From a virus (Duplodnaviria > Heunggongvirae > Uroviricota > Caudoviricetes), in IMG/VR virus record IMGVR_UViG_2541047877_000006: a stretch of DNA of 53,577 nt. One strand, given 5' to 3'. Under the pieces are notes generated by a model. The model was not told the origin of the DNA. It did no database searches and was given only the letters and a program-made list of their open reading frames with translations. Positions 2,529 to 42,604 of this stretch are shown here, piece after piece; the first letter of the stretch is position 1; each line of letters opens with the position of its first letter. Made by a program: the position numbers and the translations under genes.

Positions 2529-3950
2529 TTAAAAAGATGCGTTATTCTGGTTGTTTCGTGGTGAGAATCGGCTTGCAGACGGACGTTGTTGCATTGACTG
2601 GATGCAAGCTGACGCCGCGCGGGCCTGGTCGCATGGTAAGATGTTGCCGTTGTCGTCAAACCGCTGGTAAACAGTCCCCGTTTTCCCGTGACGGTTTTTT
2701 GAAACGATGATCTCCATGTATTCGCGGGCAACTGATTGTTCGTTGTAGTAGCCGTCGCGGTAGACCATGATGATCCGGTCTGCGTCTTGTTCAAGATTAC
2801 CGGAATCACGCAGATCAGAATTGTTCGGGCGCTTGTTCGGTCGTTCTTCAACGCGGCGGGATAATTGCGCCAGCGCCGCCACTGGCACGCGCAACTCTTT
2901 CGCCATCATTTTCAATGACCACGACAATTGCCCTACGGCGAGATCATGACGTTCGGCCTTAGCCAGTTTCATTAAACCGATGTAGTCAATCATCACCATT
3001 CCAAGATTAGGATGGTCCTGTTTCATCCGTTCGACGGTGGCGCGTATTTCCTCAACCGTTAACTGCGATGCGTCAACAATCCACACATCGAGATCGGCAA
3101 GGGCGCTCATCCCCTGGGTAACGTGCGCCCATCCTTCGTCATCCAGTTTTACCGGATTACGTAGGCAATCCGTTGATAAATTCCCAGCGCCAGCGATAGC
3201 TCGTTCAGTCATCTGATCGAGCGACATTTCAAGCGTGAACAGCAAAACGCCGACCCGCTGACCTTCTCCGCCAGGGTATTGGCGTTCAGCCGCCGCGCGG
3301 GCAATTGCCAACGCCAACGCCGATTTACCAGACCCTGGGCGTCCGGCGATAAGCACCAGATCAGTAGCGTTAATGCCGCCTAACATTTCGTCGAGTGGGT
3401 CAATCCCTGTTTTGATGTTGTCAGAGTTCACGCCACACTCCATGCGTTTACTTAGCACTTCCGTGTATTCCTGGACAGCATCGCGCAACAGCACCGGGAT
3501 AATCTGATCTTTTGTTACCTTTAATTTTGAATACCGGGAATCAAAATCTTTCATCGTCTCTTTGACGACCTCAAGAGTCCCCGTTTCCAGTTTGTAGCGC
3601 ATATCGTCGATGAGTTCCAACATCTGCCGACGCTGGTGCTCTTCACGTAGTAGCTGTGCGTATCCCTTCAGGTTGGCAGCAGAAGGGCACGATCGCGCCG
3701 TTTGCATTAGCGGCACAAAGTTTTCATTACCAATCTCATCACCAACCAGTAACGCGTCGATGAGATTTCTGTTTCTGGCTTGCGCACGGATAATTTCAAA
3801 AGCCCGCTTATATAGCGGAATAGTGAATACTTCAGGATCTAGAGTAGCGAGAACGTCTTGCGCGTTAGGAGTAAGCCCACCTAACAGCAGGCCACCGATA
3901 ACCGCAGATTCTCTTTCTTGCCGCAATGAGTTTACTTGTTCGGTTATCAT
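2529..3950 (-). CDS. DnaB-like replicative DNA helicase
   Basis: 473 aa; Walker A GRPGSGKS and DnaB-type RecA-like core; GGAGG SD. Confidence 0.85.
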   Translation of the reverse strand: MITEQVNSLRQERESAVIGGLLLGGLTPNAQDVLATLDPEVFTIPLYKRAFEIIRAQARNRNLIDALLVGDEIGNENFVPLMQTARSCPSAANLKGYAQLLREEHQRRQMLELIDDMRYKLETGTLEVVKETMKDFDSRYSKLKVTKDQIIPVLLRDAVQEYTEVLSKRMECGVNSDNIKTGIDPLDEMLGGINATDLVLIAGRPGSGKSALALAIARAAAERQYPGGEGQRVGVLLFTLEMSLDQMTERAIAGAGNLSTDCLRNPVKLDDEGWAHVTQGMSALADLDVWIVDASQLTVEEIRATVERMKQDHPNLGMVMIDYIGLMKLAKAERHDLAVGQLSWSLKMMAKELRVPVAALAQLSRRVEERPNKRPNNSDLRDSGNLEQDADRIIMVYRDGYYNEQSVAREYMEIIVSKNRHGKTGTVYQRFDDNGNILPCDQARAASACIQSMQQRPSASRFSPRNNQNNASF

Positions 3951-3968
3951 TATGGCATCGCCTCCGGT

Positions 3969-5087
3969 TTACAAAATGGAATATTCAGGGTAATAAACAA
4001 AGCGCCCGATTTCTCCATGATCCGGGCTGTAAATAATCACCGCTGCCAGCCGCCGCGACCGCCAACCACCATTCGTTGAATAAGCGTCTTTGCCAGCTAA
4101 CGTGCCGTGATACTCAACAACGCCTAACGATGACTCAATCAGCCGTTGATGATGCCAGTGCCCGCAATGAGCGTAAACAGCCGCAGATTTACCGAAATCT
4201 TCCCGCCAGTCAGATACGCAGGCCGCCAACAAGTTTTCCGGTTTTTTGATAGTATGACCGTGATGATATGCAAGGAATGTTTTGCCGTACTGTGTGTGGT
4301 GGACGATAGCAGGGGACACGTCAACCGTCACGCGCGGTTCATCTTCATAAAAAGCCGCCAGCGCCGCACGTAGCCAGATCATCCCTGATTGGTCGTGATT
4401 ACCGGATAATGTCTGGATCTCGACATCCTTATGATTTAGTAACATCTTCCCGACCGCACGCCGGACCGACCGGATCGCCACGTAAACCAGTTTTGCGTAG
4501 CGTGAATCGCAATCCAGGACGTGATTGCTTGATGGCGTCACTGGTAACAGGCCGTCAGTGTGAAGCACATCACCGCCGAGAAGTAAAACAGCCTTTTCAG
4601 ACATTGGCGCAGCGCCTACCGCGTAGTCGAAGAAATCATTTAGCACGCGTTCAGCGATCCCGGTGTCGTAGCTTTCGCCGCATTCAGCTTTATGAGCAAG
4701 CGCCCCGATATGTAGATCGAATACCGGATAAAGGGCCAGGCTTTTTTGGAAATCAATTTCCGGCACTGGCACGGCCTCCGCGCGTGGCATATCTTCCGTG
4801 AAAGCATCGCAAGCCGCTTGCATTAGCCTTTCCATTTCATCGCGATCACGGGCTGTTTTAATCCAGCGCATAATCACATTGCCATCCTTATCGACGAGCA
4901 AAGACTCACCATTGATGCCAAAACCAGGCGCGCGACGCGTGGATATTAAACCGCGCTTTGCCAATCGTGCGCCCAGGCGTTCGACGTTGCGTTTTGCCAT
5001 TCCATATTCTTCGGCTATTTGCTTGTAAGTTTTCCCATTGTTGTATTCAGCGATTAATTGCTCGTCGCTGATCTTTCTTTGCGACAT
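3969..5087 (-). CDS. HTH domain fused to calcineurin-like metallophosphoesterase
   Basis: N-terminal HTH (KTYKQIAEEYGMAKRNVERL); C-terminal motifs DLHIG, GGDVLH, GNHD, GHWHH (Mre11/SbcD-like set). Confidence 0.6.
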   Translation of the reverse strand: MSQRKISDEQLIAEYNNGKTYKQIAEEYGMAKRNVERLGARLAKRGLISTRRAPGFGINGESLLVDKDGNVIMRWIKTARDRDEMERLMQAACDAFTEDMPRAEAVPVPEIDFQKSLALYPVFDLHIGALAHKAECGESYDTGIAERVLNDFFDYAVGAAPMSEKAVLLLGGDVLHTDGLLPVTPSSNHVLDCDSRYAKLVYVAIRSVRRAVGKMLLNHKDVEIQTLSGNHDQSGMIWLRAALAAFYEDEPRVTVDVSPAIVHHTQYGKTFLAYHHGHTIKKPENLLAACVSDWREDFGKSAAVYAHCGHWHHQRLIESSLGVVEYHGTLAGKDAYSTNGGWRSRRLAAVIIYSPDHGEIGRFVYYPEYSIL

Positions 5088-7633: not shown

Positions 7634-7891
7634 TCATCCCTCCGGCAACATCACTACATAGACATCACTGAATGCATCAAGACGACAAACAAATCCTTTA
7701 TCCATTAACGCGGCGAAGGCATCATGTACCGTATGAACAGGAAGTTCACACATTGCGGCTACTTCTTTGCGTGATGCATCATGTACCCGTCCTTTGTTAT
7801 CTGCCTTTTCAGCCAGAGCCATTAAGACAAGTTTTTGAATCGGGCTATTAAGTTTTACGTTCCATGCTTTACTAATCATGTTCATACTCAT
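7634..7891 (-). CDS. winged-helix/HTH DNA-binding protein in Cro position
   Basis: 85 aa from ATG 7891 (AGGAG SD); first gene of leftward operon, divergent from cI. Confidence 0.4.
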   Translation of the reverse strand: MSMNMISKAWNVKLNSPIQKLVLMALAEKADNKGRVHDASRKEVAAMCELPVHTVHDAFAALMDKGFVCRLDAFSDVYVVMLPEG

Positions 7892-8105
7892 CGCATTTTC
7901 TCCTATGGTTAGAGTGAACGCGCGGGCGGGCATCCCATTAGCATTAGATAGCAGTGACTGACCGCTCAACAGATCCCGCCGTTGCGTGATATTTGTTTTT
8001 CGCTTCGCAGCGACACCGGATTTTTAAAGAGCATAAGGTAAGTGCCTTTTTGTGCCTTCAGTTATCTTTTTCCTTGCGTCTTTGCAAGTATGGCCTTACC
8101 TTGTC

Positions 8106-8163
8106 TGCAAGTTTACAAAATGGAATTTTAAGATCAAGGCTTAAAATACACGTTTTGTGACTT
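8106..8163. promoter_or_regulatory. nested imperfect palindrome in cI upstream region (operator-like)
   Basis: TGCAAGTTTACAAAA...TTTTAAG atcaagg CTTAAAA...TTTTGTGACTTGCA; arms match 14/15. Confidence 0.4.
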
Positions 8164-8875: not shown

Positions 8876-8956
8876 CCTGGGAAACACCAAAACGTAAACA
8901 GAAAACGTTATTTATTATTTAAATATCAATGGCATATAAAATATTTTAAAAAAGTA

Positions 8957-8996
8957 TACAAAATGGATTGACTCGATGTTTTACGGGGCGTATATT
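8957..8996 (+). promoter_or_regulatory. pL-like sigma70 promoter with upstream TACAAAATGG element
   Basis: -35 TTGACT (8968-8973), 17-nt spacer, -10 TATATT (8991-8996); TTGACTCG/CGAGTCAA inverted repeat brackets it. Confidence 0.55.
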
Positions 8997-9250
8997 GCGA
9001 GTCAAAGGAAGGGCGCAGGTAACAAAAGCAACTTCCTGGCACTTTAAAAATCAGGCTTAACACCTTGTCAACCGTGGAGTAACTCCCCGATGGGGGACCG
9101 AAAGCGGCACTGATAACAAGGCGCATGGGGTGTTTAAAGCGTTACATCCCCCACGAAACCGCACGCAAGGCGACGAGTCAGCTTGCTTGGAGTGAGCAAG
9201 GTCACGCCGGGAACGGCGATGATTGCGGGATTAGTTGAAAGATGTTAAGC

Positions 9251-21660: not shown

Positions 21661-21774
21661 GGCGTTGGACAACCATAAATGTGATCTGTATCACAATGTA
21701 TACGAAATGGCATTGTTTCGACAGTGCCATTTTGTTATATATAAGCCACGGAAAGACGGAGGGGAGGCAAGAAG

Positions 21775-21915
21775 ATGAGCGCTAACGCTAAATATCCGGC
21801 ATGGGTTTTTGAGTTATACGCCCGCTACTTTGAATTGCTGGCACAAGGTGAAGAAGCATTAAGCATTGACGAGTACGCGGAGTGCTTAGGGTTTAAAGGA
21901 GACGAAGAAGCATAA
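21775..21915 (+). CDS. small hypothetical protein (46 aa)
   Basis: GGAGGGGAGG SD; followed by GGGGCCggatGGCCCC stem-loop. Confidence 0.3.
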   Translation: MSANAKYPAWVFELYARYFELLAQGEEALSIDEYAECLGFKGDEEA

Positions 21916-36187: not shown

Positions 36188-36886
36188 ATGATCCATGTTC
36201 GTACAGGACAATTTGCTGCCGTGGTGAACGGTAAGCGCTATGAGTTTAATCCTTGCTTTGCTGCGATGGCTAAAATCGGCAACGATAGTGAGCTTGTCGA
36301 ATATTTCGCACTTATCCACGGCGGCAAATATCCATCACGATTGCCAGCAGATCCAGACCTACGCAATCGCATTCTGGCGCGGTGTTATGGTGAAATAGTT
36401 CAGACATCAATGCACATCCTGAAATGTTGCTCAGACGACGAAATAGGCCCGTTATTGGGCGAATGCTGGTTTACTCCTTCGGGTAAGTTAAAGTTAAAGC
36501 CCGGATTAATGCCGATCGAGGATATCATCACGCTTGCGCAGCACTGCATGTACCACGGTCTTATTGGTGATGGCCCGGAAGAAGAGTCCGGGGAAATTCC
36601 GGAAGGGGAATATAAGCCGACTTTTAACGTCCTTGAATTCGTCTATTCTGCCGTTGCTCACCTGGGCTTGTCAGAATCGGAAGCATGGAATATGACAATG
36701 ACCGGATATAGGGCCGCTGTACGCGCTAAAACGCCGCCAGACGAAAGAAACGAGAAAAGCAAGCCAAACATTCACATAAATAAACGTGCTTATGACGAGC
36801 AAATGGAGGCCGCTAAAAAGGCACTAGAAAGAATGAAAAATCGTGAGCAAGAAAAGCCCGGTAGATCCGGGCGTTTTGCTAATTGA
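36188..36886 (+). CDS. tail assembly chaperone (G/GT-like position)
   Basis: 232 aa; AAGGTG SD; between major tail and tape measure genes. Confidence 0.5.
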   Translation: MIHVRTGQFAAVVNGKRYEFNPCFAAMAKIGNDSELVEYFALIHGGKYPSRLPADPDLRNRILARCYGEIVQTSMHILKCCSDDEIGPLLGECWFTPSGKLKLKPGLMPIEDIITLAQHCMYHGLIGDGPEEESGEIPEGEYKPTFNVLEFVYSAVAHLGLSESEAWNMTMTGYRAAVRAKTPPDERNEKSKPNIHINKRAYDEQMEAAKKALERMKNREQEKPGRSGRFAN

Positions 36887-37253
36887 AATCTTTAATTGCT
36901 GTACCTGGTGAACTGTGTGTGATTGTATTGTATACAGACTTTGCCTTACTGCGATCTTTCCATTCTTTTAGGATGCAGTTATCAAACTTTGCGATAACCC
37001 TTGAAGGGGATAATTCTTCAACATCCATGTAAGTAAATCCTATCGTGCTGGTTACTGAATACCATACGTGATAACTATAATTACCGTCATGCTCGATTCT
37101 TTGTGGTTCCCCCATTATTTTATTCACTTGCTCACAAGTCATTCCAACTTGCAAATTTTTATCAGCTAACTTAACGAAATCAGTTGATCTTGCGCACCCT
37201 GTAAGAGCTAAAGCCATAACACCAATGAGAACCGCTTTGATTATTTTTTTCAT
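36879..37253 (-). CDS. BamE/SmpA-OmlA-like lipoprotein (124 aa)
   Basis: Signal peptide with lipobox LTGC; QVGMTCEQVNKIMGEP matches BamE motif; opposite strand to tail operon. Confidence 0.55.
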   Translation of the reverse strand: MKKIIKAVLIGVMALALTGCARSTDFVKLADKNLQVGMTCEQVNKIMGEPQRIEHDGNYSYHVWYSVTSTIGFTYMDVEELSPSRVIAKFDNCILKEWKDRSKAKSVYNTITHSSPGTAIKDFN

Positions 37254-37263
37254 GATTTACCCC

Positions 37264-37923
37264 TTAATTCCAGTTGCAAGCGTTTTTCACTTTGTCGATG
37301 TGGTTATAAAGACCATCAATGTTAAACACTGCTTTCTCAATGTCGCCAGCTTCCGGCACTACTTCAATGATGAATTGTTTTTCGTTAACCAGTTTTTTAA
37401 TCATTGGGATGGCTTTTTTGCCGTCCCATAATCCAAGAGCTTTATAATTAGTTGACCGCCACCACTCAGTAGCTACAGCTTTGTGAACGCCGATCCGGTA
37501 GTTAATATAAGTAGTGTCCCCGGCGTCAGTTACATGGTGTGACCATGCTACGAACATTTTTGTTTTATTACCCTGGCAAGCGATTGTTAATACCGGTTTA
37601 TTCTTATCCTGTGCCTTCAGTGTCGGGAAAGCATCAAGACTTCCGCTGAATTGTTCTGCTTTCACAAAAAGGAATACGTTTTTTGCGTCCTGCATATCAT
37701 CTTTTCTTTCAACTACAAGCCACTGTTTACCAGCATTTTCTTTTTCTAACTGTGCATCGTATGCGGCTTGTTTTGCTTGTTGTTCTGCAAGCCATTTAGC
37801 ATTTTTCTCTGCTAATGCTTGTTGCTCTTGATTGGTCACTATAGGCGCTTTTTCATTATCCTCATTGCAACCAACCAGACCCAATACCGCCGCAATCATT
37901 GCCACTTTTGCTAACCGTTTCAT
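37264..37923 (-). CDS. lipoprotein of unknown function (219 aa)
   Basis: Signal peptide with lipobox LVGC; Q/A/K-rich region then globular domain; own promoter. Confidence 0.5.
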   Translation of the reverse strand: MKRLAKVAMIAAVLGLVGCNEDNEKAPIVTNQEQQALAEKNAKWLAEQQAKQAAYDAQLEKENAGKQWLVVERKDDMQDAKNVFLFVKAEQFSGSLDAFPTLKAQDKNKPVLTIACQGNKTKMFVAWSHHVTDAGDTTYINYRIGVHKAVATEWWRSTNYKALGLWDGKKAIPMIKKLVNEKQFIIEVVPEAGDIEKAVFNIDGLYNHIDKVKNACNWN

Positions 37924-37969
37924 AACCCACCACGCTAACTTGATTTACTGACCATTCCCTTTAGCTTCC

Positions 37970-38011
37970 TTATACAAAATGGAGTCGTTGAAGTAAAGCC
38001 ATTTTGTATAA
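37970..38011. promoter_or_regulatory. 42-bp palindrome with back-to-back divergent promoters
   Basis: TTATACAAAATGG-16 nt-CCATTTTGTATAA; minus strand -35 TTTACT and -10 TATAAG, plus strand -10 TATAAA. Confidence 0.5.
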
Positions 38012-38050: not shown

Positions 38051-40393
38051 ATGGCTACCAGTGTAGGTACAATTTATTACGAAGTTGATGCGAAAACTGG
38101 TCAACTTCTCGTTGCACAACGACAGGCAGACCAGGCCTTTGATCGTATAGAGCGCGGCGCAAAACAGGCTGACCGCCAGGTAAACACCCTGAAAACATCC
38201 ATCAAGGCACTGACCAGGGTTATCCATCTGCTAATTGCTGCGGAGGCTGTGCGCCAATTTATGGATATGGCGGAGCAAGCAAAAATGCTTCGCGTAAAAA
38301 TCAAAATGCTTACGGGCGATGCGGAGTCCGCCGGACGGGTTTTCGACGGCCTGAAAGCAATATCCAGGGAGACGGGGCAGAGCCTGAAAGATACTGGCGA
38401 ATTATGGCAAGGCCTGGCTATCTCACTAAAAAACACCTCCGCTACGGAAGGGCAATTGCTTAACCTGGTTGGCACTATTCAGAAAATGGGTGCATTAGGC
38501 GGCGCGTCAGCGGAACAGATGTCTAACTCAATGCGTCAATTCCGTCAGTCTATCGACGGCGGTGTTCTTCGTGCCGAAGAATTTAACAGCCTGCTTGAAA
38601 ATACGCCGACCATCGTACAAACAATGGCCCGCCATATGGGATTATCAATGGGCCAGTTCCGCGCCGAAATGCTGGACGGCAAGATCACGGCTGAAAGGAT
38701 GGTTAACGCAATACAGGCGGCTACGCAGGAAACAAACGATAAGTTTGCTCAGTTGCCGCGCACATCCGGCATGGCTATCAATGAGCTTAAAGTAGAAATT
38801 ATGGGCCTTGTTGAGCAGTTGGATGATCTTTTTGGCGTGTCAGATGGCGTTGTTTCAGCTATCGACTTGATCACGAAAGGCGTTAAAGGGCTTGGCGATG
38901 GCGCTAAATTCGCTAAAACCTGCTTCGACACACTCAAAACGGCTGGTAGCGAATTTATCGACATGTTTGATGATGTGGCTGTTAAGGCTGGAGAGGTGGC
39001 AGAGAAGATCATCGCAATGGTGACGCCAATCAAGGCGCTAATGGATGGCTATAAATGGATGAAGGAGGTAGTAGGAGAGCAAACCGACGAATATAACAGC
39101 AACTACGAGAAGAAATACGGGAAGACCGTTGGCAAGGTCATGCAACTACAGGATGATCTGACCGCAGCAATCCAGGCTACAGAAGAAGCAAGGAAAAATG
39201 AACAGAATGCTGCCAATGACGGAGCGATTACCGGATTCGACAAGCCAGTAGACAAGCCGAAAAAACAGAAAAAAGAGAAGAAATCGGAAGCTGATCGGCT
39301 TGGTGACAAAGGTATAAGCGTTTCTGATCAGTACAACAAAGACGCCGCCGCCATGCGCAAAGCGTTGGAGAACGGCAAGGCCATTGATGCTGCATTTGCC
39401 CAGGGTAAAATCACGCTCCTTGAGTACCGCGCCGCGCAAAAAGGGATCGGCAAGGAACTGAAAGAAGAATTAGCACAAATTCCGGTAGATGAATTGCGTG
39501 ATAAATGGTCACAAATAGTAAGCCCGATGGATCAGCTAAAAGGCGAAGTTGACCCCATCCAGCAGGCGCAAAATGAATGGGCCATCCGTAAGCAAATGCT
39601 TATAGACCTGGGCGCTACTGAAGCGCAACAGAAACAGGAATTGTTAGCCTATGAGCAACAGATCCGCGATCTGAAATGGGAACAATGGCAGGCGCAAAGC
39701 GACACAAACGGCCTTATCGGTGATTGTGTTAATGGCCTTAAAGGCGGAATGAGTAATGCGCTTGTTGGCCTGTTAAACGGCACTCAATCATTGAGTGATG
39801 TTTTTGCTAACTTAGGAAGCAATATACTCGGCAATATCGGTAACAGACTCTCAGACATAGCTGCAAACTGGATAGCAGATCAGATCATGATGGAGACACA
39901 AAGCAAGGCCACGCAAACAAGTACAACAGCAAGCGCGGTAGCAGCTCAGGGAAGCATTGCTGCGGCGGCGGCCCCAGCAGCGGCGGCAACTGCGGCGTCA
40001 ACTGGCGGTAGCTGGGCGGCGGCTGGTTCGGCGGCGCTCACTGCGATCATGTCGCTGGCTACGTCAATTTTCGGCGGCGGTCGCTTTAATGGTGGTAGCG
40101 TCATTGGTGGTAATATGTACCGCGTAGGGGAACACAACAGGCCGGAGCTATTCCAGACATCTAACGGCAATCAATATATGATCCCTGGCGAGAACGGCAG
40201 AGTTATTCCGGGCCGTGATATTGGCGGCGGTGGCGGTATTAGTATGCCTGTCAGTATCAGCATTCAGACCACGAACGGATTCAGCGACGAAGACAGCCGC
40301 AGACTTGAATTAACAATGGAACGTGTAGCCATGAAAATGATAACAAGGGAATCTCAAAGACCAGGCGGAATGTTGCAACCTCGCCGCAAATAA
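38051..40393 (+). CDS. tail tape measure protein
   Basis: 780 aa; coiled-coil and Ala/Gly-rich repeats; between chaperone and M-like gene. Confidence 0.85.
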   Translation: MATSVGTIYYEVDAKTGQLLVAQRQADQAFDRIERGAKQADRQVNTLKTSIKALTRVIHLLIAAEAVRQFMDMAEQAKMLRVKIKMLTGDAESAGRVFDGLKAISRETGQSLKDTGELWQGLAISLKNTSATEGQLLNLVGTIQKMGALGGASAEQMSNSMRQFRQSIDGGVLRAEEFNSLLENTPTIVQTMARHMGLSMGQFRAEMLDGKITAERMVNAIQAATQETNDKFAQLPRTSGMAINELKVEIMGLVEQLDDLFGVSDGVVSAIDLITKGVKGLGDGAKFAKTCFDTLKTAGSEFIDMFDDVAVKAGEVAEKIIAMVTPIKALMDGYKWMKEVVGEQTDEYNSNYEKKYGKTVGKVMQLQDDLTAAIQATEEARKNEQNAANDGAITGFDKPVDKPKKQKKEKKSEADRLGDKGISVSDQYNKDAAAMRKALENGKAIDAAFAQGKITLLEYRAAQKGIGKELKEELAQIPVDELRDKWSQIVSPMDQLKGEVDPIQQAQNEWAIRKQMLIDLGATEAQQKQELLAYEQQIRDLKWEQWQAQSDTNGLIGDCVNGLKGGMSNALVGLLNGTQSLSDVFANLGSNILGNIGNRLSDIAANWIADQIMMETQSKATQTSTTASAVAAQGSIAAAAAPAAAATAASTGGSWAAAGSAALTAIMSLATSIFGGGRFNGGSVIGGNMYRVGEHNRPELFQTSNGNQYMIPGENGRVIPGRDIGGGGGISMPVSISIQTTNGFSDEDSRRLELTMERVAMKMITRESQRPGGMLQPRRK

Positions 40394-40398
40394 ACTAA

Positions 40399-40426
40399 AC
40401 CCCGGTGCAATGCCGGGGTTATTTTT
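40399..40426 (+). terminator. rho-independent terminator after tape measure gene
   Basis: ACCCCGG tgcaatg CCGGGGT hairpin followed by TATTTTT. Confidence 0.65.
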
Positions 40427-40479: not shown

Positions 40480-40734
40480 TCACTTATGAGTGCCTTTCAC
40501 GCCACATAACTTGTTATAGGCATGGTGCTCAACAATTAACCAAACCTTCAAATCTTCGCTAAACAGCCTCCAATCAAGATTGATATCCATTTTGTATCCG
40601 TAACCGTCGCGTAACTTTTTGGGGTAAACTTCTTTTCTCAGAAAGGCTTTAAGTAATTCCTTACCTTTCTTGATGATCCGGTCCTGTGCGTTTTTCTGTG
40701 CTTTCAGATTTCTGTCAATCGCTACCAGTTTCAT
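40480..40734 (-). CDS. small basic protein (84 aa), second gene of minus-strand cassette
   Basis: MKLVAIDRNLKAQKNAQDRIIKKGK...; 14 nt downstream of 51-aa partner. Confidence 0.45.
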   Translation of the reverse strand: MKLVAIDRNLKAQKNAQDRIIKKGKELLKAFLRKEVYPKKLRDGYGYKMDINLDWRLFSEDLKVWLIVEHHAYNKLCGVKGTHK

Positions 40735-40751
40735 AACTCACCCCATCATCC

Positions 40752-40907
40752 TTAGTTAAGTGCCTTCAGGAAGAAGTCCCGGTATTCATCTTCTTTCGCA
40801 TTCATCATGAATTGACCGTATTTGAATGCGTCGTCGAAACCCTTAACGATTGCTATTTCCACTTGTTCGAATGCGTTATTTAGCATTACTACTACATAGC
40901 GTTTCAT
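40752..40907 (-). CDS. small protein (51 aa), first gene of minus-strand cassette
   Basis: MKRYVVVMLNNAFEQVEIAIVKGFDDAFKYGQFMMNAKEDEYRDFFLKALN; AGGAGG SD. Confidence 0.4.
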   Translation of the reverse strand: MKRYVVVMLNNAFEQVEIAIVKGFDDAFKYGQFMMNAKEDEYRDFFLKALN

Positions 40908-40947
40908 TTTGGGCCTCCTTCGTTGGTACTACTTTCTTCTTGCTTTC

Positions 40948-40987
40948 TATATACATCTTGTTGCGTGCTATGTGAAGCCATTTTGTA
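40948..40987 (-). promoter_or_regulatory. sigma70-like promoter for minus-strand cassette, with TACAAAATGG element
   Basis: Minus strand: GTTTACAAAATGG then -35 TTCACA, 17-nt spacer, -10 TATATA. Confidence 0.45.
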
Positions 40988-41017
40988 AACTAGCTATAAT
41001 CATTGTGACAATGATCT

Positions 41018-41042
41018 TATTTTTCGCGTAGAAGCGCGTAAA
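41018..41042 (+). repeat. 25-bp conserved element copy B
   Basis: TATTTTTCGCGTAGAAGCGCGTAAA; 23/25 identical to 28727-28751; next to palindrome CATTGTGACAATG. Confidence 0.5.
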
Positions 41043-41076
41043 GATATATACAAAATGTAACTTGTGGGGGGGTTTT

Positions 41077-41783: not shown

Positions 41784-42032
41784 CTATAAGTTATCACGCA
41801 GATAATTAACGCCCTTATCAGTGACGAATGAATGGTTAACCTGGTTTTCATCCGTCATGATGATGAATAACTTTTCATGTAGGTATTTCGCTTTCGGGTA
41901 CAGCGTTAAACAGACCTGGTACAGTATCCCGCGCTCAATCAGCAAATCAATAAATTCGTGTTCATGATAACCGATGAGGCGGGCGGCCTGTTTCAACGTG
42001 TACACATAATCACCGTGATTGCGCCGCCCCAT
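41784..42032 (-). CDS. HTH-like DNA-binding protein (82 aa), third gene of cassette
   Basis: YTLKQAARLIGYHEHEFIDLLIERGIL resembles HTH; AAGG SD; 9 nt after gene B stop. Confidence 0.45.
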   Translation of the reverse strand: MGRRNHGDYVYTLKQAARLIGYHEHEFIDLLIERGILYQVCLTLYPKAKYLHEKLFIIMTDENQVNHSFVTDKGVNYLRDNL

Positions 42033-42041
42033 GTTGCCGCC

Positions 42042-42389
42042 TTATTTATCGAATGCTAAAAGGTTATCGATACAGAAATCTTTCGCCGCTTTTTCGTATT
42101 CGCGTTTTGCTTCTGGATCGTCAGCCGGGAAACCTTTTGCGTGTATTTCACCAGGGCAAGACTGGTCCATAGAATCTGCATAATAAGCAGTGAAGCTACC
42201 ATTAATATCTTTCGGGTTCATATCTTCCACCTCATCAACTATATGTACCGGATTAGCAGCATATTTCACTGGATGGCCTAAACTACATTCAAGAATCCTG
42301 CCTTCTTCCAGGGCTACTTCTTCGCTATCAAATAATCCGAAACACTCCTTGCTACCACTTAACCACACATCAAGACTGTATTTTTTCAT
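42042..42389 (-). CDS. acidic protein (115 aa), second gene of cassette
   Basis: ATG 42389 with GAGG SD; acidic; overlaps first gene by 20 nt. Confidence 0.45.
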   Translation of the reverse strand: MKKYSLDVWLSGSKECFGLFDSEEVALEEGRILECSLGHPVKYAANPVHIVDEVEDMNPKDINGSFTAYYADSMDQSCPGEIHAKGFPADDPEAKREYEKAAKDFCIDNLLAFDK

Positions 42390-42558
42390 TTTTGTTAGCC
42401 TCATATTTGACAGGTTCGATCTGGTATCCCAAAAGGCGGTCATCCTCAGCAAGTAAAAGCGCGTCAACCAATGCTTCACCCTCGTCGTCATACAGGGCGA
42501 TAACCTTTTCCCTACCGTCTGTCATGAATACCGTCAACTTCCATAGCTTTTCAGTCAT
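42370..42558 (-). CDS. small acidic protein (62 aa), first gene of cassette
   Basis: MTEKLWKLTVFMTDGREKVIALYDDEGEALVDALLLAEDDRLLGYQIEPVKYEANKNEKIQS; GGAGGTG SD. Confidence 0.45.
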   Translation of the reverse strand: MTEKLWKLTVFMTDGREKVIALYDDEGEALVDALLLAEDDRLLGYQIEPVKYEANKNEKIQS

Positions 42559-42604
42559 AACGCACCTCCGCGCCATTTTGTTAACTATGCTTCCGTTTGA
42601 GTAA

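Follow-up and report, generated by a model that had tools for sequence, protein, structure and literature searches.

The closest described counterpart of the locus analyzed here is gene 15 of bacteriophage HK97, an extra gene of the tail operon that lies between the chaperone and tape-measure genes and excludes other phages (Juhala et al. 2000; Cumby et al. 2012; PMC3594210); the term "moron" was coined for this gene in this very slot (PMC3594210). In the virus record IMGVR_UViG_2541047877_000006, a stretch of 53,577 nucleotides (nt) referred to below as the window, the same slot is occupied by a cassette of two minus-strand genes for predicted lipoproteins. To judge from its sequence, the window is a prophage of the mEp021-like "mEpimmI" group of coliphages, which are Nus-dependent and non-lambdoid (PMC11893012). 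Similarly to HK97 gene 15, the cassette has its own predicted terminator, a deviant G+C content, and envelope-directed products; HK97 gene 15 also has its own promoter, for which the cassette offers a candidate. However, HK97 gp15 is a single small YebO-like inner-membrane protein with demonstrated exclusion activity, whereas the cassette encodes two predicted outer-membrane lipoproteins with other folds, is located on the strand opposite to the tail genes, and has its candidate promoter inside an operator-like inverted repeat.

Outer-membrane lipoproteins encoded in the structural gene region are known from several other phages and include Llp of T5, Cor of phi80, HK022, and N15, and Lpp021 and Lpp010 of the mEpimmI phages. 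Lpp021 (gp81) of mEp021 consists of 72 amino acids (aa) and is encoded after the J gene, in contrast to the cassette products of 124 and 219 aa, which are encoded before the tape-measure gene; Llp and Cor are of a similarly small size. The original prediction, made from the DNA letters alone, regarded the two proteins as unrelated to the known exclusion lipoproteins. Neither could be aligned with Lpp021, which agrees with that view for the protein that the comparison covered (Lpp021, not Llp or Cor).

On the sequence level, the two genes can be described as an accessory (moron) unit, and the place of its insertion, flanked by the DUF6246 and tape-measure genes, as a recombination hot spot of the mEp021-like phages. 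The conserved left flank of the slot is the DUF6246 gene (36179..36886, plus strand; PF19759, E=2.2e-54; "DUF6246 family protein" in PGAP), which occupies the position of a tail assembly chaperone gene, and the conserved right flank is the gene for the tape-measure protein (38051..40393, plus strand; PF20155, E=1.1e-49). The first gene of the cassette (37264..37923, minus strand) encodes a 219-aa predicted lipoprotein with the lipobox LVGC (Cys19) and is preceded by what reads as a Shine-Dalgarno sequence, GGTGGG (37926..37931, minus strand). The second one (36879..37253, minus strand), separated from the first by 10 nt, encodes a 124-aa predicted lipoprotein with the lipobox LTGC (Cys20), and its Shine-Dalgarno sequence AGGGG lies ahead of position 37253. 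Both the location inside the tail operon and the lipoprotein nature of the two products had been correctly recognized in the original prediction: each open reading frame (ORF) starts with a predicted charged n-region, a hydrophobic core, and a canonical lipobox. Since both ORFs match PHROG families (phrog_1848, E=4.5e-58, and phrog_18614, E=8.9e-64) and 19 to 22 of their approximately 30 differences from relatives fall in third codon positions, they are genuine genes; none of their PHROG matches carries an exclusion annotation.

The flanks of the slot are 81 to 86% identical to those of the phages mEp021, mEp044, and MagusPhagus, and the cargo region has no match in these phages. Similarity to the isolated relatives breaks off near 36861 and picks up again near 37944, so the cassette is bounded by a hairpin on the left and by the inverted repeat on the right. 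Across 36800 to 38000, the G+C content is 37 to 42%, compared to 47 to 52% on either side. The hairpin, the G+C-rich sequence GCCCGGTAGATCCGGGC (36856..36872, both strands), was found by a terminator scan just 3' of the 124-aa gene; on the minus strand it is followed by the T-run TTTTCTTGCT and resembles an intrinsic terminator, the plus-strand terminator being weaker. Its calculated RNA folding energy is -15.5 kcal/mol on the minus strand and -19.6 kcal/mol on the plus strand (z of about -4.5), and its counterpart is annotated as a terminator in mEp021 and mEp044. This hairpin marks the left recombination boundary of the slot. Thus, three of the features expected of a moron, namely extra DNA between two genes whose interval is filled differently in related phages, deviant base composition, and a terminator of its own, are found here at the sequence level. 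The identical cassette is present in Escherichia coli chromosomes, with matches in 17 of 5426 complete genomes, 14 of which cover at least 80% of the query.

The content of the slot changes rapidly. A survey of 44 related loci, which represent 37 distinct slot contents, revealed at least 7 types of cargo, every set of which is located on the strand opposite to the tape-measure gene. These include the VasI-like lipoprotein (the 219-aa protein, see below), periplasmic proteins (the 137/138-aa gp63 type, others of 116 to 129 aa, and one of 165 aa), two membrane proteins of 35 and 100 aa that occur as a pair, a lipoprotein of 245 aa, and the 124/127-aa lipoprotein, in various combinations; nearly all of them carry a signal peptide, a lipobox, or transmembrane segments. 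The suggestion that the two lipoproteins form a functional pair is not borne out by this survey, in which either gene is found without the other. Thus, prophage L005 has the VasI-like gene alone, prophages L007 and L008 combine the 124-aa homologue with an unrelated 129-aa periplasmic protein, and in several loci a gene for a cytoplasmic protein of 106 aa accompanies the VasI-like gene. The idea of an obligate two-protein system is therefore rejected. Unrelated mature domains are often attached to the same signal peptides (MKRLAKV... on the first cargo gene and MKN[I/V]IKAALIGVMA..., common to the 124-aa and 245-aa lipoproteins), so the exchange of cargo seems to occur within, or just after, the part that codes for the signal peptide.

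In mEp021 (approximately 3860 to 3950), MagusPhagus, and mEp044, some 130 extra bases separate the palindrome from the first cargo gene. They contain a conserved, unannotated minus-strand short ORF, not present in the window, that starts with MKNYYRP after a good Shine-Dalgarno sequence.

Because the cargo of this slot is nearly all envelope-targeted and turns over fast, the HK97 gene in the same slot is an exclusion gene, and phages are known to use outer-membrane lipoproteins such as Llp, Cor, and the mEpimmI Lpp proteins for exclusion, the interpretation ranked first is a moron cassette, with the anatomy described here, that has a role in exclusion or protection at the level of the cell envelope; by analogy with these systems, this has roughly even prospects of being correct. 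Under this interpretation, both genes would be transcribed leftward as a single mRNA from the promoter TTTACT-17-TATAAG, with a start near 37962 and an end at the 36856-36872 hairpin, and the arms of the repeat would serve as operator-like sites near -42 and -15. Both lipoproteins would then work in the periplasm, protecting the cell envelope, and, going by the analogy, the most likely action would be to stop a later phage as its tail tip and tape-measure protein cross the periplasm.

The predicted location of the proteins fits the periplasm. According to the Lol rule of E. coli, lipoproteins with a residue other than Asp after the lipobox Cys go to the outer membrane; this residue is Ala in the 124-aa protein and Asn in the 219-aa protein, and therefore both should sort to the outer membrane, where they are predicted to be tethered to its inner face. 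Searches of PDB sequences with both proteins, both family alignments, and two alternative cargo proteins returned nothing significant. The alternative cargo had no match in Pfam. A spanin or lysis role was considered and rejected: the only match, to phrog_812 (E=0.089), is at the level of the signal peptide, and the phage has its own lysis cassette elsewhere.

The 219-aa protein begins with MKRLAKVAMIAAVLGLVGC, which is followed by NED, and its LVGC lipobox is nearly invariant in the family alignment. The protein is not an orphan: its residues 55 to 218 match the VasI domain (PF11319) with an E value of 1.2e-15 and a score of 58.1 bits against the gathering score of 26.5, and PGAP names the protein TagO. 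Similarly to VasI/TagO of Vibrio cholerae (VCA0118), it consists of approximately 220 aa, is targeted to the periplasm, and has a homologous C-terminal domain of approximately 155 residues. Unlike VasI/TagO, it scores below the equivalog cut-off, is encoded in a prophage and not in a type VI secretion system (T6SS) locus, and carries a lipobox and a long-helix N terminus. In the AlphaFold model (pLDDT of 70), a long helix (residues 31 to 63) precedes a beta-rich domain, and the VasI/TagO domain is modeled with an IalB-like beta fold. The Cys residues C116 and C216 of the mature domain are invariant in the alignment and would fit a periplasmic disulfide. No additional members were retrieved when the family alignment was used for a profile search, and for this reason the structure models rest on just 9 to 10 close sequences and are of moderate confidence (pLDDT of 70).

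The close family of the 219-aa protein comprises no more than 12 clusters, every one of them from this phage slot or an adjacent one. An exhaustive HMMER search with the VasI domain recovered 1077 cluster representatives at E values of 1e-3 or below, and the nearest relatives outside the phage branch are only 30 to 42% identical. A lipobox-like motif is found in 22 of 142 VasI-domain relatives, most of which have ordinary signal peptides or N-terminal anchors; many of the inspected N termini contain a Cys-containing motif after an ordinary signal peptide. VasI-domain genes are also carried as cargo, at 25 to 35% identity, by P2-like phages and by phages of Pasteurella, Brucella, and Labrenzia. 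The P2-like prophage Escherichia phage 500465-2 encodes, at the cargo end of the element (3358-4588), a 297-aa VasI-domain protein after a zinc-ribbon protein, and in some distant relatives a zinc ribbon, a transmembrane segment, and the VasI domain are fused in a single protein. Most of the distant relatives that were looked up are located on contigs of 1 to 3 kb, with the genomic context mostly beyond view.

The VasI domain brings up the possibility that the 219-aa lipoprotein, perhaps together with its BLIP/BamE-fold neighbor, modulates the T6SS of the host or, as a kind of immunity or barrier, shields the cell from T6SS effectors of competitors that act in the periplasm. The domain match speaks for such a link, which is nevertheless considered unlikely: against the T6SS equivalog model TIGR03360, the protein scores 47.4 bits, far short of the cut-off of 124.2, and its neighbors are the tail tube, DUF6246, and tape-measure genes of a phage tail operon and not a T6SS cluster. 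The one distant VasI relative with 10 kb of context has no neighbor that matches a T6SS Pfam family, and the slot-mates of the VasI-like gene in related phages are unrelated proteins with no T6SS link. Furthermore, TagO/VasI is listed among proteins of unknown function in a recent review and has no known immunity role (PMC13584744).

The 124-aa protein begins with MKKIIKAVLIGVMALALTGC, which is followed by ARS; its LTGC lipobox is nearly invariant in the family alignment, one relative having LAGC. Its proposed likeness to BamE/SmpA-OmlA stands at the level of the fold but not at that of family membership. PF04355 (BamE/SmpA_OmlA) scores 18.9 bits against a gathering score of 23.2 and covers residues 33 to 51 only, whereas the predicted structure has the two helices and the beta-sheet of BamE/SmpA_OmlA and is, as modeled, a BamE/OsmE/BLIP-like alpha-beta fold. 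In addition to scoring below the BamE cut-off of Pfam, the protein differs from BamE, OsmE, and BLIP in being phage-borne and only 14 to 20% identical to them and in belonging to a narrow family of 10 clusters.

Proteins of this kind could also serve lysogenic conversion in favor of host interaction or envelope fitness, that is, contribute, as Bor and Lom do, to adhesion, invasion, or resistance to serum or stress and not act on phage entry. This is quite unlikely: the likenesses are at the fold level only, with 8 to 20% identity, the proteins are predicted to face the periplasm and not the cell surface, and the extreme turnover of the cargo better matches a conflict system. The operator-like pair described below further suggests that the cassette is not constitutively on in lysogens.

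The inverted repeat that forms the right boundary of the cassette consists of a left arm, TTATACAAAATGG (37970..37982, plus strand), and a right arm, CCATTTTGTATAA (37999..38011, which reads TTATACAAAATGG on the minus strand). The element, originally described as a perfect palindrome of 42 bp, does span 42 bp, and its two 13-bp arms are 100% complementary, but the 16-nt spacer between them is not palindromic. It is the sole perfect inverted repeat of at least 13 bp (with a spacer of 3 to 60) in the whole window; first-order Markov simulations gave a mean of 0.05 such repeats, with 4.5% of the simulated sequences holding one. The repeat is present in 36 of the 37 distinct slots, whatever the cargo, always with a spacer of 16 nt and with invariant arm cores. 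Instead of being the cassette's own promoter, as had been proposed, the palindrome is thus a conserved element made of two copies of a genome-wide motif, and by this conservation it belongs to the phage backbone and not to the cargo.

It could be argued that this repeat is an RNA hairpin of the late tail mRNA that governs processing, stability, or translation of the tape-measure gene, and not a DNA promoter or operator. It can fold as RNA (-13.4 kcal/mol, z=-4.6), the start codon of the tape-measure gene follows some 40 nt downstream, and the element is kept among relatives in the 36 of 37 slots mentioned above. However, the innermost pair of the arms varies (G or T in the left arm, C or A in the right arm) without compensation, leaving a mismatch in about half of the slots, which argues for DNA sites and against an RNA hairpin. 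Moreover, each arm matches a motif of which the window has approximately 16 single copies, distributed over both strands and mostly at places where no hairpin can form. The hairpin is not followed by a T-run, and no Rfam family matches the region. All this makes an RNA role very unlikely.

A second, imperfect palindrome, TGTATACGAAATGG-16 nt-CCATTTTGTTATA, is located at 21697-21740 and, with the same 16-nt spacer, precedes a 46-aa ORF at 21775. The sequence flanking it, TGTGATCTGTATCACA, equals the reverse complement of the right-hand flank of the tape-measure palindrome, and a cleaner copy is present in the related prophage L004 at 21271.

Of the two back-to-back promoters proposed for the repeat, the leftward one is the better candidate. 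The predicted leftward cargo promoter, TTTACT-17-TATAAG, is a sigma-70-like candidate with 9 of 12 matches and a 17-nt spacer in a fixed-register search. Its -35 element (37992..37997, minus strand) lies inside the 16-nt spacer of the repeat and reads TTTACT or TTCACT in relatives; its -10 element (37969..37974, minus strand), TATAAA in most relatives, overlaps the outer end of the left arm, and transcription is predicted to start near 37962. The promoter sequence is kept in relatives; a generic promoter scan passed over it because its -10 element lacks the T at position 6. The right arm adjoins the leftward -35 (with its center at about -42) and holds TATAAA/TAAAAT, a possible -10 of a rightward promoter facing the tape-measure gene, for which the best match, with GTCGTT as the -35, is a poor 7 of 12. 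The center of the left arm is at about -15 relative to the leftward start and at about -42 relative to the possible rightward start.

The motif that forms both arms has the consensus AGTWTACAAAATGG, also written as AGT(A/T)TACAAAATGG(A/C), with partial dyad symmetry. Its core TACAAAATG is the most over-represented 9-mer of the window (16 copies against 0.86 expected); examples are found at 1045, 3970, 5253, 8114, 8957, 9636, 13035, 16387, 16453, 37973, 38000, 40979, 41049, and 51455. Copies occupy syntenic positions in mEp021, where they are also found upstream of the gene for the validated exclusion lipoprotein gp81. Of the 15 copies in a closely related prophage with PGAP annotation, which matches the window exactly across the cassette region, 12 are intergenic, compared with 11% of intergenic sequence (P of about 1e-9). 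All divergent junctions of the tail operon bear a pair of motifs, which, like the copies ahead of gp81 and the second palindrome, fits a regulatory role. The copy at 8110 is located in the leftward early region and has a degenerate inverted partner at 8150-8160, and the copy at 8953, invariant in 31 distinct sequences, adjoins the -35 of the early rightward promoter. The motif was also considered as a plain -35 element or a start-codon context and fits neither at most sites; consensus sites of host regulators (IHF, Fis, DnaA, OmpR, PhoP, CpxR, TyrR, and LexA) gave no convincing fit, and a full-text literature search for the motif string returned unrelated papers only.

Three predicted promoters share a single register: at 8954, 38011, and 40990, the -10 element begins 37 nt from where the motif begins. 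With the motif read as a 17-mer, this upstream site is centered near -42. The first of these, TTGACT-17-TATATT (8968-8996, plus strand), comes after the repressor gene and its terminator and is by position the early rightward promoter; a nut-like hairpin lies approximately 40 nt downstream of its predicted start (cf. PMC11893012). The other one besides the cargo promoter is the leftward TTCACA-17-TATATA (minus strand), which is located beside a motif copy and would drive the ParE-like cassette at 40480..40907. A unique inverted repeat, TTGACTCG-22 nt-CGAGTCAA (8968-9005), spans the region from -35 to +1 of the early rightward promoter and may be an operator of a second kind. Around the repressor gene, there are A-rich hairpin-like sequences GC[AT]CTTTAAAAATC[AC]GG at 8016-8032 (minus strand), 8121-8144 (plus strand), and 9037-9060 (plus strand); these three are probably nutL and nutR1 of the mEp021 type and a third, plus-strand copy upstream of the repressor gene.

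The repressor of this phage (8197..8844) is a homologue of lambda CI (E=1.4e-20); a small protein whose counterpart is annotated as MarR-like is encoded at 7634..7969. In addition, as is typical of lambda operators, the same site is repeated at the early promoters beside the repressor gene. Similarly to OR1 and OR2 of lambda, two copies of a 13- to 17-bp site flank or overlap the -35 and -10 elements of the cargo promoter. In contrast to the lambda operators, the motif is only partly dyad-symmetric (TACA-AAA-TG[G/T]A), the centers of the two sites are 27 bp apart, and binding is predicted only. We read the arms of the palindrome as likely operators of a phage regulator, with the cargo promoter laid out like the early rightward promoter. 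This shared layout makes it probable that the cassette is under the control of a phage regulator, for which the lambda-CI-like repressor or its antagonist is the most plausible candidate. The co-occurrence of repressor and motif was uninformative, as relatives of the repressor at 90% identity or above are found only in the same phage group. Operators covering both the -35 and the -10 element suggest a cassette that is repressed in the lysogen and expressed early once induction has taken place; early expression is a feature of Llp in T5. Alternatively, a CI-like protein bound at -42 could be an activator.

The many further copies of the motif in short intergenic gaps across the genome resemble the stoperators of mycobacteriophage L5, which have a uniform orientation relative to transcription; unlike these, the sites described here show no such uniformity. 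A bolder and rather doubtful interpretation would treat the approximately 16 to 28 dispersed operator-like AGTWTACAAAATGG sites as E. coli "stoperators," through which the early promoters and all reverse cargo cassettes of the tail operon would answer to a CI-like repressor or its antagonist, while the VasI-domain lipoprotein would form a periplasmic barrier to incoming tail or T6SS needles. The cassettes included in this equally tentative scheme would be the lipoprotein pair, the ParE-like module, the KilAC antirepressor-like cassette, and the Lpp locus. If this were true, the slot would be an immunity-regulated, fast-exchanging library of envelope proteins with a common signal-peptide adaptor.

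Several observations count against the interpretation of the cassette as a moron with an envelope-level exclusion or protection role. No cargo protein matches an exclusion protein of known function, PADLOC defense models gave zero matches for any cargo protein, and TagO/VasI is classed as a protein of unknown function in a 2026 review (PMC13584744). The experimentally validated exclusion lipoproteins of the mEpimmI phages are small proteins without relationship to the cargo, with genes at another place (after the J gene), and both -10 candidates in the repeat lack the conserved final T. Finally, a repressor bound to both arms would keep the cassette off in lysogens, unlike a classic moron, and expression in lysogens is doubtful because the cargo promoter resembles a repressor-controlled early promoter.

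Other reverse cassettes and cargo positions are found in the same part of the window. The next reverse cassette after the tape-measure gene (40480-40907, minus strand) encodes a ParE-like toxin (PF24732, 9e-12) and a 51-aa protein; a bidirectional terminator lies nearby at 40398-40420, and the upstream region is 40908-41061. A third one (41784-42560, minus strand) encodes a KilAC-domain antirepressor-like protein (PF03374, 1.1e-6) with two or three small ORFs and has degenerate copies of the motif upstream, at 42572 and 42609. Directly after the J tail-fiber gene, where mEp021 encodes gp80 and the exclusion lipoprotein gp81, the window contains instead an IS4-family transposase gene (49669-51015, plus strand; Nterm_IS4 and DDE_Tnp_1) and a 100-aa ORF with an internal signal peptide (51061..51363, minus strand). 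At the portal position, the gene of prophage L004 at 28739-30109 (corresponding to 28753..30144 of the window) is named "anti-CBASS protein Acb1 family protein" by PGAP, whereas Pfam identifies it as Phage_portal_3 (7.8e-19); the Acb1 name is likely misleading.

On its own, the cassette adds little, being a textbook moron in a textbook slot. Neither the cargo slot nor the shared signal peptides nor the dispersed motif is mentioned in the passages of the mEpimmI paper retrieved by a term search (PMC11893012), and, as far as those passages go, these three are modest new details, whereas the moron, the VasI domain, and the BamE fold are of already known kinds. VasI/TagO-domain proteins, annotated as T6SS accessories, turn out to be recurrent cargo of temperate phages, and the first insight into the function of this family could come from a phage phenotype. 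The dispersed motif provides a testable map of the regulatory circuit of the mEpimmI phages, whose operators, to judge from the same passages, have so far been undescribed. The interval between the DUF6246 and tape-measure genes of these phages, a group frequently present in the human gut, represents a natural library of envelope-targeted proteins and a compact hunting ground for new mechanisms of exclusion or protection.

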